A DNA stretch of 64,000 nucleotides from a virus (taxonomy: Duplodnaviria; Caudoviricetes), in the IMG/VR virus record IMGVR_UViG_3300021356_000018, positions 223 to 64,222 of that record; one strand, written 5' to 3'. Under the pieces are notes generated by a model, which was not told the origin of the DNA, did not search any database, and saw only the letters and a program-made list of their open reading frames with translations. The translations under genes were made by a program, and so were the position numbers. This document shows, one piece after another, positions 12,552 to 42,076 of this stretch (position 1 is the first letter of the stretch; each line of letters begins with the position of its first letter).

Positions 12552-12626
12552 TGGTACCCCGTAGGAGAGTCGAACTCCTGTTGCCGAGATGAAAACCCGG
12601 TGTCCTAACCACTAGACGAACGGGGC
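12552..12626 (-). tRNA. tRNA-Glu (TTC)
   Basis: GCCCCGTTCGTCTAGTGGTTAGGACACCGGGTTTTCATCTCGGCAACAGGAGTTCGACTCTCCTACGGGGTACCA: cloverleaf, anticodon TTC, TTCGA T-loop, encoded CCA. Confidence 0.96.
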
Positions 12627-39873: not shown

Positions 39874-40994
39874 TAATCTTCTCTTTGGCCAAATCCATAA
39901 TCAATTACAACTGGGAATCTTGGTATTCCATCAGGCGTCTCGTTAAAGTATCTTAGTGTTGCCCAATTTGGTGTATCACCATTGTCCCATAATTTTTTAA
40001 GTACATCTTGTGTACCTCTTACTCCTGCTCCAAAGTTTGTACCATCTGGTTTTTGTAATACAAAATGTTTTACATAACCAGCCCAGTTACCTTTACCTTC
40101 TAACATTGAAACAACTTTAAATTCGTCAGTAATAAACTCTTTACGCTTTAGTAAGTATTTACTTCTTTTGTTTTCGTAAGGCATATCGTATCGCACCATT
40201 TGCCCTTCGTAACCATCTTCCATCCATTGACCATAAAGATTGTCTAAACTTTCTTGTGATTGTACTGATATAGTTTCTACAACTTTAATTGCATTCATGT
40301 CAGAAAGTGTCATACCCAGCCTAAAAAACCTGCTTGAGAAGACTAAATCGCTCTCAGAAGTGTCATACATATCATAAACATGGTATTGCACAAGCCTTTC
40401 TGATTCTAAAATGTCATACTCTGTAGATTTTTGTTTACGAACAAGCGATGTGATTTTATTAAAGTCATCTTTAAGTTCGTGGTTATATAACTCACCATCG
40501 AATACATACTCTGGATGCTCATCAAATATTCCTTTAATCTCATTCCAAATATGTGGGCAACTTGTAATTGGCTTATTTGCTCTCGTCCAAAGTCCACTCT
40601 TGTTTGCAATGCATCGTATACCATCGAGCTTTGGTTGAGCGATAATTGGAAAATCATCATTCTCTTTATAACCACCAGCTAACATTGGTTTAAATGCTGT
40701 ATAAGAGTCGATGTCTTTGATATCTTTGAAGTACTCTTTTTCAATTCTACGATCGTAGATGCTCATTGCTTCAGTTATTGCTTGAGTATAAGCATTGGTT
40801 GCATTTGCACGACCAACATTTTTTGCTTTAGTTTCTTTCCAGCCTGATGTTACAAGCTTTCCATCTTTAATTCCAGCAATACTTCTAATTGCAGCAACAT
40901 CATCTGAATCCCAACCATATTGAATAGTCAGTTCTCTGATTTTACCTTTTGTATCTCTTTTATAGAGAGTTGGTAATGATGATATATTTTGCAT
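39873..40994 (-). CDS. gp30: ATP-dependent DNA ligase
   Basis: KPMLA, QPKLDGIR, FDGELY, EGQMVR, LLKRK, GIPRFP. Confidence 0.93.
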   Translation of the reverse strand: MQNISSLPTLYKRDTKGKIRELTIQYGWDSDDVAAIRSIAGIKDGKLVTSGWKETKAKNVGRANATNAYTQAITEAMSIYDRRIEKEYFKDIKDIDSYTAFKPMLAGGYKENDDFPIIAQPKLDGIRCIANKSGLWTRANKPITSCPHIWNEIKGIFDEHPEYVFDGELYNHELKDDFNKITSLVRKQKSTEYDILESERLVQYHVYDMYDTSESDLVFSSRFFRLGMTLSDMNAIKVVETISVQSQESLDNLYGQWMEDGYEGQMVRYDMPYENKRSKYLLKRKEFITDEFKVVSMLEGKGNWAGYVKHFVLQKPDGTNFGAGVRGTQDVLKKLWDNGDTPNWATLRYFNETPDGIPRFPVVIDYGFGQRED

Positions 40995-41425
40995 TAGTTT
41001 CTCCTCATTTTAGCAATCTCTTCTGCTTGTTTAGTACCTTTCATAACTGGAACTGCGTTTGATTTGTGCATAGTAGCAATACCAACAATCAGGTCACCAG
41101 TATACTTAAGTGTTTCTTTCTTAGTACCACTGCCACCGCCTGTAACTTCTAGCGAAGGATAGTTTGGTGTTTCTCTACGATAAGCAGATTGTGGTTGATA
41201 AGTTTTGAAATTTTTATAGTGACGAGGGTCTGGCATTTTTGTACGACCATAAGAGTAATCGATGTACTCTTGTAGAGTATCATATCGTAAGTCGTGCATA
41301 CCTTTACGTTTCATGTCACGATTGTGCTCTCGCCATTGCAGCTCGAGTTCTTGCAATTTTGCTTTCGTGATTTTGACCTTTCGCTTTTTAGTGCTTATGG
41401 TCGATAATCCTCTAGCTAATCCCAT
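40994..41425 (-). CDS. Conserved hypothetical phage protein
   Basis: YTGDLIVGIATMHKSNAVPV motif. Confidence 0.75.
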   Translation of the reverse strand: MGLARGLSTISTKKRKVKITKAKLQELELQWREHNRDMKRKGMHDLRYDTLQEYIDYSYGRTKMPDPRHYKNFKTYQPQSAYRRETPNYPSLEVTGGGSGTKKETLKYTGDLIVGIATMHKSNAVPVMKGTKQAEEIAKMRRN

Positions 41426-41452
41426 ATAATAAACCTCATAATATAAAAAACT

Positions 41453-41481
41453 ATTATAACACGTTAGAATGTATTTGTCAA
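41453..41481 (-). promoter_or_regulatory. Sigma70-type early promoter
   Basis: TTGACA-N17-TATAAT, extended -10. Confidence 0.9.
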
Positions 41482-41493
41482 CCCTTAAAAGGG

Positions 41494-41650
41494 TGGTCTT
41501 GCGGTCGGCTGTTTTGGTGTTCCGTTCCTACTCAGTATGTCGGTAGTTCTGGTGTTCCATATTGAGCGCGGTAGGCGTCGTGGGTCCTAAATGGTAGAGC
41601 TATTAACTCCGTGATTCCATCTCGCCGTCATGCTTTAATCCCGCAGACCA
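41494..41650 (-). ncRNA. Candidate structured non-coding RNA (about 157 nt)
   Basis: GC-rich intergenic island without an ORF; terminal stem UGGUC-UGCGG/CCGCA-A-GACCA; two internal stem-loops; 7 GGA motifs. Confidence 0.6.
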
Positions 41651-41660
41651 TAAACTTGTA

Positions 41661-41942
41661 TTACCTTCTTCCTCGGTAGTTACTCAATTGTTCAGATGCT
41701 ACTTTTTTAAGCCATCTCTTTCTGCCTTCAGCTTTTTTACGTTTACGTTTTGCTGTCGGCTTTTCATAAAATTCTCTAGCTCTTAATTCTTTTATAATTC
41801 CAGCTTTTTCAATCTGTTTTCTAAATTTCCTTAAAGCTATATCGAAAGGCATATCTTGTGGTGGCCTTCTATCTTTTGGATGTCTTGGCCTTGCTCTTAA
41901 ATCAACGGTTCTCCCATTGATTTGCTTATTATATTTTCTCAT
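41661..41942 (-). CDS. rpsU: Ribosomal protein bS21 with N-terminal extension
   Basis: [39 protein letters not shown]; start moved to ATG 41942. Confidence 0.92.
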
Positions 41943-41949
41943 AAGTGTT

Positions 41950-41978
41950 ATTATAATTGGTTTTGTTTGATTTGTCAA
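41950..41978 (-). promoter_or_regulatory. Sigma70-type early promoter for rpsU (leaderless geometry)
   Basis: TTGACA-N17-TATAAT-AACACTT-ATG. Confidence 0.88.
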
Positions 41979-42004: not shown

Positions 42005-42031
42005 AAAAAAAGGGAAGCACTAAGCTTCCCT
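42005..42031 (-). terminator. Rho-independent terminator after peroxiredoxin
   Basis: AGGGAAGC-TTAGT-GCTTCCCT followed by a T-run on the minus strand. Confidence 0.85.
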
Positions 42032-42076
42032 CCAAAAACGGCCAGGCGAGATGTCACCCACGTGGATTGTTTTTGA

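Follow-up and report, generated by a model that had tools for sequence, protein, structure and literature searches.

The locus considered here raises the question of what lies directly after the gene for ribosomal protein bS21 (rpsU) in a marine phage genome, where a GC-rich island on the minus strand separates rpsU from its neighbor, and whether that island encodes an RNA with a role of its own. It occupies positions 41494-41650 of the window, the whole stretch of DNA analyzed, which is a 64-kilobase (kb; 64,000 nucleotides, nt) contig fragment of a T4-like myophage (IMG/VR record IMGVR_UViG_3300021356_000018, positions 223 to 64,222). The original prediction, made from the letters of the window, took the island for an unannotated structured RNA of 157 nt, rich in GGA motifs and possibly a sponge for CsrA/RsmA. 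Comparison with relatives indicates that the element is a real, strongly constrained structured RNA conserved in marine T4-like phages, one of a family whose members range from about 80 to 220 nt in these myophages. As to its function, the proposal developed below, that this is a discrete early small-RNA gene whose product acts in trans as a protein-binding RNA, is given an even chance of being correct.

The minus-strand letters at 41494-41650 agree with those given in the original prediction. The element differs from its surroundings in composition, as had been noted (GC 0.52-0.53, against about 0.30-0.43 in the flanks), and no open reading frame (ORF) of at least 25 amino acids (aa) lies inside it on the minus strand; an overlapping ORF of 25 aa is present on the plus strand (41469-41546). 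Taken as a single sequence it is only weakly unusual in folding energy, with a minimum free energy (MFE) z-score of -2.07 on the minus strand and -0.64 on the plus strand, and 8 of 200 shuffles fold equally well. Because the single-sequence fold only modestly beats shuffles, the case for an RNA rests on comparative data. A covariance model of 162 positions (R1), built from 34 relatives, recovers the window copy with 151.6 bits and an expectation value (E) of 1.1e-47 over model positions 1-162 of 162, as the sole cmsearch match in the window, and its limits place the whole structured RNA at 41490-41654 on the minus strand, around a core of 157 nt that runs from one strand of the closing helix P1 to the other (41494-41650).

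A hand-drawn structure of 34 pairs was tested on an alignment of the 34 sequences produced by MAFFT with no structure fitting (alignment A1). Paired cells make up 93.1% of this alignment under the drawn structure compared with 82.1% in column shuffles, none of 500 reaching the observed value, and pairing is 29-47% when the partners are slid by 1-3 columns. Changes on both sides are seen in 19 pairs, and the compensatory changes fall at 8 of the 10 pairs of P1, 97% of whose cells are paired, and at all four pairs of both P2 and P3. P1 is the closing stem UGGUCUGCGG/CCGCAAGACCA of the original prediction and is the best-supported helix of the molecule. When variants were counted directly, using sequence anchors in 58 distinct RNAs of the standard type, P2 proved to exist in 12 sequence variants, 10 of which are fully paired (including GUCC/GGAC, CUUC/GAAG, GUUC/GAAC, AUUA/UAAU, UUUC/GAAA, GUAC/GUAC and CUUA/UAAG), and P3 in five (CUAC/GUAG, GCAC/GUGU, CUGU/ACAG, CUGC/GCAG and AUAC/GUAU). 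RNAalifold, unaided, recovered P1 and P3 and missed P2. An alternative hairpin preferred by MFE, UUCGGG/CCUGAA, was rejected because its 5' strand varies (GUCC, AUUA, GUAC and others) with GAA held constant, while P2 covaries. Two fixed sites, the hairpin PA2 and the loop of P3, accept interchangeable hairpins of differing length among the relatives, and since these length differences are not multiples of three and the changes elsewhere are compensatory, coding is ruled out. The degree of constraint can be gauged from two relatives whose bS21 proteins share 63-64% identity with that of the window: the RNA of L055 is 100% identical over positions 19-75, and that of L046 is 97% identical over positions 14-80. 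The RNA is under tighter nucleotide-level constraint than its protein-coding neighbors.

The molecule is organized as a closing helix and two modules, A and B (all coordinates on the minus strand). In the window, the 5' strand of P1 (UGGUCUGCGG, 41641-41650) pairs with the 3' strand (CCGCAAGACCA, 41494-41504), which has one bulged A; across the family P1 is 9-18 base pairs (bp) long, with an inner GGUGG/CCACC that is conserved in sequence and an outer part that covaries. The strand assigned by the original prediction agrees with the G-U pairs of P1 (columns 11/215 are UG in 6 sequences and columns 12/214 are GU in 8), with the direction of the promoters described below and with the stronger MFE z-score of the minus strand. 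Module A (41571-41640) is an irregular hairpin, in which a short helix, PA1 (2-4 bp in the family, 2 bp in the window), closes a pair of nearly invariant strands (AUGACGGCGAG and AGGACCCACGACGG in the family, AUGACGGCGAG and AGGACCCACGACG in the window) that flank PA2, often capped by a GNRA loop. The pairs of PA1 are G-C/C-G in the window and C-G/C-G in most relatives, columns 25/97 being GC in place of CG in the window and L022. PA2 (41588-41622 in the window) varies in length, the long form occurring in 16 of 34 sequences; at its columns 54/79 GC is found in 16 sequences, CG in 8 and UA in 1, with a short GNRA-capped or a longer hairpin elsewhere. It corresponds to the first hairpin drawn in the original prediction (AGAUGG...CCAUUU), which is real as a variable-length element. 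Folded alone, module A has a z-score of -3.34.

Module B, the core (41505-41570), has the family order J (GAAUA...ACYG), P2, a GGGAG-CAA-CNYYU hairpin, GAAC, P3 (loop CGAYAUACUGA), GGAANNNAACRCCAAAG, P2' and CGA; in the window it is laid out as J (ACYG), P2, a GGAAC/GGGAGCAAC element, GAAC, the P3 hairpin and the single strand GGAACGGAACACCAAA. The P3 hairpin of the window, CUACCG-ACAUAC-UGAGUAG, lies at 41528-41546, and all four of its outer pairs show compensatory changes; in many relatives its loop carries inserted hairpins of about 20-35 nt. The second hairpin of the original prediction (CCUA..CUCA-A-UAUG / CAUA-C-UGAG-UAGG) did not survive the comparison, as it is specific to the window: the family pairs CUAC with GUAG, which is P3, and the region proposed as its 5' partner is a different conserved element, GGGAGCAAC. 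The window copy is a divergent subtype in which P2 is weak, with three pairs (GCU/AGC), and AUAUGGAAC stands in place of GGGAGCAAC. The motif GGAACACCA, correctly reported to occur twice, represents two AAC-N-CC core elements, the first of which is altered in most members. As a separate observation, two unpaired segments of module B (A1 columns 123-126 and 188-191, window positions of about 41549-41552 and 41521-41524) co-vary in a non-Watson-Crick fashion, with NCCU or NCCC accompanying NNGG, UUUU accompanying AUCU or AUAU, and UCCU accompanying CGA, a pattern that may reflect a tertiary contact or two alternative solutions.

The modules are permutable. In most members module A is nested within the J1/2 junction of module B, but A can also precede B, each with its own closing stem (L264, L275, L447 and L460), or follow it (L498, where A is likewise a separately closed hairpin domain, and L543), and module B by itself makes up an RNA of about 80-85 nt in L012-16, L162 and L521. 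Module A without module B was not seen among the collected instances. These number 185 (68 distinct) and come from contigs of viruses and metagenomes. Searching with the bS21 protein led to 80 viral loci, and the RNA is found directly 3' of rpsU in 53 of them and not in the other 27. A complete scan of IMG/VR with a pattern for module A gave 65 stretches, and one for module B gave 32, of which five new ones were tested with R1 and three proved real; a stricter module B pattern matched 51 metagenome stretches, all 51 confirmed by nhmmer. Two loose DNA patterns were discarded, the matches listed for them being mostly due to chance. With R1, a single copy is detected in the window and likewise in each of five larger phage records (38-156 kb). 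In a scan of genome contigs, chance matches in high-GC genomes dominate, and the only real one among the matches listed (L375, accession FZLS01000017.1) is a 44.6-kb contig of a Rhodobacteraceae metagenome-assembled genome (MAG) whose RNA region is identical to that of the viral locus L291, including ORFs that resemble tail fibers. To judge from this identity, it seems to be phage sequence that was binned into a bacterial MAG and does not constitute host evidence. As this sole true match is phage sequence in a MAG, the scan is uninformative on cellular genomes.

The surroundings of the RNA bear most directly on how it is made. Promoters were surveyed at 48 distinct loci with enough flanking sequence, a promoter being accepted where at least 11 of the 12 sigma-70 consensus positions match. 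In 38 of these loci one stands immediately ahead of the RNA, in the gap after rpsU, and in eight, the window included, immediately downstream of it, the RNA there trailing rpsU; no locus has both, and two have neither. In 45 of 49 distinct instances that have a promoter, 3-9 nt separate the end of the -10 box, as placed by consensus matching, from the first base of P1. Most distinct instances also have a T-run whose start is 1-4 nt past P1, and several have none (L284, L448 and the L264 type); as a terminator it would have a stem that encloses the whole RNA, and genes downstream would need read-through. Given the spacing of the -10 box to P1 and the T-run that follows P1, the unit looks like a promoter, an RNA and a leaky terminator.

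The window represents the less common, promoter-downstream arrangement. Its rpsU (41661-41942, minus strand) encodes a phage bS21 of 93 aa (Pfam Ribosomal_S21, E 7e-17; PHROG 21469) and is preceded by a sigma-70-type promoter, TTGACA-17-TATAAT (41950-41978, minus strand), that matches all 12 consensus positions and is the likely source of the window's RNA-bearing transcript. Directly 3' of P1 a CCCUUUU run with a small hairpin, CCC-UUUUAA-GGG (41482-41493, minus strand), abuts the -35 box of a second promoter (41453-41481, minus strand), itself a match at 12 of 12 positions with a TG extension, which lies between the RNA and the next gene and defines this arrangement. That gene, p143 (40994-41425, minus strand), encodes a basic protein of 143 aa. 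The small AU-rich hairpin between P1 and the -35 box is found at the same place in other members of the promoter-downstream subtype (L002-L011 and L017-L021), and in L011 it reads CCUUUU-ACA-AAAAGG, so that the pairing is preserved with different letters. Co-transcription with rpsU, which the original prediction had proposed, fits the window itself, where the stop codon of rpsU is 10 nt before P1, no promoter intervenes and the rpsU promoter is a full consensus match, but linkage to rpsU is not essential in the family, since 38 of the 48 loci give the RNA its own promoter and some have no rpsU upstream or place the RNA ahead of rpsU.

The commonest order, rpsU, RNA, p143, is that of all 53 bS21 loci with the RNA and of 36 among 51 metagenome loci, and several others exist. 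A promoter and the RNA precede a 70-aa membrane protein in four viral and six metagenome loci that differ in their upstream genes, a 447-aa protein in loci of the L264 type, and rpsU itself in L498 and L543, where the RNA directly precedes it; in L516 and L521 the RNA is followed by p143 with no rpsU upstream. In L064 (3480-3555) and L479 (1519-1594) a gene for tRNA-Thr (UGU) begins 12 nt after the RNA and before p143, one promoter serving all three, and the start of a tRNA-Thr also follows the RNA in L497 and L508. Such varied contexts argue against a regulator tied to one downstream gene and favor an RNA that is its own product, with run-through into what follows. Run-through of this kind resembles the scheme of immediate-early and delayed-early genes in T4.

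Evidence of expression comes from contigs assembled from RNA libraries, which show presence and whose gaps and ends are not readable as transcript ends, strand or abundance. Six RNA runs share a small part of the words sampled from a 1.2-kb stretch, and four of them were aligned. One contig matches 41486-41706 with 0 mismatches, covering the last 45 nt of rpsU and the whole RNA and stopping at the end of the U-run, and contigs of related variants in two other studies cover module A. The first of these is compatible with co-transcription with rpsU, for which it is weak evidence.

One plausible account of these observations is that in most phages a consensus sigma-70-type promoter belonging to the RNA would drive its transcription very early in infection, beginning with the first base of P1 and ending leakily at the T-run after P1, with the consequence that downstream genes would be read by run-through. 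In the lineage of the window the RNA would form the 3' end of the rpsU transcript instead. After its release it would act in trans during early infection as a stable protein-binding RNA, either a scaffold or a decoy, through a binding surface formed by the conserved purine-rich internal loop or junction in each module. The basic protein p143 and bS21 would be the first candidates for a partner, a host protein being equally possible. Against a strictly cis-acting element and in favor of this account stand the promoter between the RNA and the next gene in eight of 48 loci, the tRNA-Thr gene that intervenes before p143 in L064 and L479, and the four different downstream genes (those for p143, the 70-aa membrane protein, the 447-aa protein and bS21). 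The permutable modules, the single copy in each of five records and the presence of the element in RNA libraries point the same way. A more elaborate version, in which the two-domain permutable RNA together with p143 and/or phage bS21 forms an early ribonucleoprotein (RNP) that reprograms or decoys the host machinery for translation or RNA surveillance, is an unlikely elaboration.

Several observations weigh against a trans-acting RNA. The gene downstream lacks a separate promoter in 38 of the 48 loci, which makes the RNA a 5' leader there as well; P1 and the T-run could form a regulated terminator; and an RNA-library contig from one relative spans rpsU, a divergent RNA and p143. Methylophilales phage Melnitz, whose genome is complete and has no match to R1, encodes a distant homolog of p143. 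Neither bS21 nor p143 turned up in five records that have the RNA in a different setting, though at 7-50% completeness these records say nothing about absence. P2 and the GGGAG hairpin are, moreover, degenerate in the window's own copy.

The principal rival is possible, if not the expected outcome: the RNA would be a cis-acting 5' leader, a riboswitch or protein-responsive attenuator whose core senses a ligand or protein and whose P1, beside the T-run, terminates transcription before the downstream gene. In favor of a leader, 38 of 48 loci have the RNA downstream of the sole nearby promoter and ahead of the next co-directional gene, a T-run follows P1 in most loci, and the anatomy, with invariant junction nucleotides, covarying stems and variable peripheral hairpins, is like that of an aptamer. 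The recurrence of promoter, RNA and 70-aa membrane protein in four viral and six metagenome loci fits as well, that protein having a sub-threshold likeness to PnuC (Pfam NMN_transporter, E 0.05). A leader is difficult to reconcile, however, with the consensus promoter that separates the RNA from the next gene in eight of 48 loci, the window among them, with the tRNA gene that intervenes in L064 and L479, and with four downstream genes that are mutually unrelated. A P1 of 9-18 bp should form without any ligand, the order of the modules is permuted and each has its own closing stem, no alternative anti-terminator pairing was seen by eye, and no riboswitch model of Rfam matches.

In a second rival, judged improbable, the RNA would bind bS21 by mimicking a ribosomal binding site of that protein, for example through a duplex like that of Shine-Dalgarno and anti-Shine-Dalgarno sequences (SD:ASD), in order to regulate, store or deliver the phage protein. 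Of the 80 bS21 loci, all 53 with the RNA have the gene for bS21 directly upstream of it, as have 36 of 51 metagenome loci; rpsU comes directly after the RNA in L498 and L543; and a module B hairpin with the strands GGGAG/CUCCU or GGGAG/CACCU resembles an SD:ASD duplex. Binding of bS21 to a duplex that mimics SD:ASD is reported for OLE RNA (PMC12054373). The hairpin is nevertheless GGGAG/CUUUU in many members and is absent from the window copy, rpsU is not upstream of the RNA in L516, L521, the membrane-protein loci and the L264 type, and 27 of 80 phage bS21 loci have no RNA. Mimicry of 16S rRNA, which the words GGAACACCAG and GGGAGCAA(A)C had brought to mind, was rejected, as the scores are no better than those of shuffles: in local alignments of six family members with three of the five 16S sequences fetched (E. 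coli, L484 and L485), all 18 comparisons fell within the shuffled range, the lowest shuffle count being 13 of 200.

It is very unlikely that the RNA is a processive antitermination element like the put elements of phage HK022, which would stay on its polymerase and carry it through terminators in cis. Such a role would suit an RNA that is always promoter-proximal or placed after one short gene, is co-directional with the downstream genes whatever their identity and tolerates an intervening tRNA gene. It would not suit one that occurs once per genome and not once per early operon, that a second promoter directly downstream would bypass in eight of 48 loci, and that bears no likeness in sequence or structure to any Rfam family; nor is a long closing helix known to be a feature of put RNAs.

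There remains the CsrA sponge. The motif counts on which this idea was built are accurate, with seven GGA and four ANGGA in the window copy, but the enrichment is marginal, 4.3 +/- 1.3 GGA being expected from dinucleotide shuffles and 103 of 2000 shuffles reaching seven. Three of the seven are kept in at least 24 of 34 relatives, namely GGGAU at the boundary between the end of P1 and the junction, AGGACC in the internal loop of module A and GUAGGAA at the 3' end of P3, so that in the comparative structure the conserved motifs lie at a helix end or in internal loops and none in a hairpin loop; two others sit in the optional long PA2 hairpin (16 of 34), and the number of ANGGA per relative ranges from 0 to 5 (0 in L295). 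A sponge titrating host CsrA through repeated GGA, although a strong early promoter would supply it in quantity, is the least probable of the explanations, the model being unsupported because few GGA are conserved, their enrichment is marginal and none is in a hairpin loop, to which may be added a nucleotide conservation and closed multi-helix architecture unlike those of CsrB/Rsm RNAs and the absence of any match to a Csr/Rsm model of Rfam at E <= 10.

The neighboring proteins give few further clues to a partner. The most constant downstream neighbor is p143, present in all 53 of the bS21 loci that have the RNA and in none of the 27 that lack it, a co-occurrence that is confounded by synteny within one clade. 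The protein has an invariant C-terminal motif, YTG..GI.TMHKSN.VP, and 1223 homologs, all unnamed. It has no match in Pfam or PADLOC and belongs only to PHROG 27048 (function unassigned); its Atlas neighbors are all hypothetical proteins, the best profile match in the PDB has an E of 0.028, and the AlphaFold model is poor (mean predicted local distance difference test, pLDDT, 67.7). The membrane protein, conserved, of 69-72 aa and beginning MKWLAT, always follows the promoter and RNA in one phage group (L284 204-413, L291 571-783, L478, L448 and six metagenome loci); its likeness to PnuC/YhhN is below the cut-off, with E 0.05-0.08 for PnuC-type transporters, and it has no PHROG or PADLOC match. 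A second clade of phage bS21 (L052-L081, 27 of the 80 loci) is without both the RNA and p143, and there a RecA/UvsX-like gene lies within a few bases 3' of rpsU (Pfam RecA E 9e-11, T4_UVSX_C E 9e-10).

Elsewhere the window carries genes for a large terminase, sheath, portal, gp23-like head protein, gp43-like polymerase and gp46-like protein. Its major head protein shares 62-64% identity with its counterparts in the closest cultured phages, those of Sinorhizobium, Methylophilales and Pelagibacter. The gene 3' of p143 encodes an ATP-dependent DNA ligase. Just upstream of the rpsU promoter a peroxiredoxin gene is followed by a strong terminator-like hairpin and T-run (42009-42033, minus strand), so that rpsU together with the RNA seems to form a transcription unit of its own. 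The ATG of rpsU, at 41942 (minus strand), comes 7 nt after the end of the promoter's -10 box, and no Shine-Dalgarno sequence is visible; for these two reasons the phage bS21 mRNA may be leaderless or nearly so.

It is of some consequence that phage bS21 is widespread and its mode of working unsettled, and that a large share of the marine T4-like phages that encode it carry an adjacent folded RNA. The architecture is unusual: to the core domain an accessory domain may be added inside, before or after it, or not at all. Since consensus early promoters frame it, the RNA is probably among the first and most abundant products of these phages, and as an orphan RNA of 80-190 nt supported by covariation, it is small enough for probing and structure work and a concrete candidate for an RNA-based early function in phages. 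Should the leader or attenuator reading prove true, it would be a new class of sensor in phages; should the RNP reading do so, it would be an RNA-based device for host takeover in some abundant T4-like phages of the ocean.

The family is absent from Rfam 15, which bears out its description as unannotated: at gathering thresholds there is no match at the element, the sole match in the window being a tRNA, and a cmscan of 41400-41750 at E <= 10 returned only two chance matches to unrelated families, with no CsrB/Rsm or riboswitch model among them. A scan of five divergent relatives at E <= 1 gave only tRNAs and chance matches elsewhere. ARAGORN predicts neither a tRNA nor a transfer-messenger RNA (tmRNA) at the site; the tRNA of the window, which is the sole match of either Rfam or ARAGORN, is tRNA-Glu (UUC) at 12552-12626 on the minus strand. 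A literature search by titles and abstracts yielded no description of an RNA adjoining phage bS21. In a 2023 survey that proposed 8495 unnamed candidate structured RNAs from intergenic regions of IMG/VR (the DNAVirus_N set; PMC10690425), those text passages that were seen mention neither S21 nor rpsU. That set has the same data source and likewise consists of covarying intergenic phage RNAs (29-151 nt) without assigned function, and the phage RNA, or part of it, may already be catalogued, function-less, among the 8495.

With CsrB, RsmY and RsmZ the phage RNA shares the features of a small non-coding RNA that has several GGA motifs, is expected to be abundant and could titrate a protein. Sponges of the CsrB/Rsm type are, however, repetitive and fast-evolving and typically have at least four conserved GGA or ANGGA motifs in hairpin loops or in the single strands between hairpins, whereas the marine phage RNA has a fixed multi-helix fold, a long closing P1, invariant junction nucleotides and three conserved GGA. 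Riboswitch and leader aptamers, such as the NAD+-II class (pnuC motif), resemble it in having a closing P1, conserved junctions, covarying stems and variable peripheral hairpins, and also in position, mostly that of a 5' leader and sometimes ahead of a small membrane protein; they differ in that the phage RNA has a P1 of 9-18 bp, permuted modules, unrelated downstream genes and, in eight of 48 loci, a promoter downstream. The complex of OLE RNA with bS21 (PMC12054373) sets a precedent for bS21 on a structured non-ribosomal RNA, and the phage RNA mostly adjoins a bS21 gene; OLE RNA itself, at about 600 nt, membrane-associated and found in Bacillota, has no likeness to the phage RNA, in which the SD:ASD-like hairpin is not family-wide.

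The last comparison is with the phage T4 itself, whose rnaC and rnaD (species 1 and 2) are stable RNAs encoded beside tRNA genes. Homology to these was rejected, R1 having no match at E <= 1 in the 6-kb T4 locus (L472) that holds rnaC, rnaD and eight tRNAs, and rnaC has a tRNA-like T-arm sequence that the marine phage RNA is without. The two systems are nonetheless alike in kind, each being a small, stable-looking RNA of a T4-like phage that is co-directional with early genes, and in some relatives of the window the marine RNA too is directly followed by a tRNA gene.

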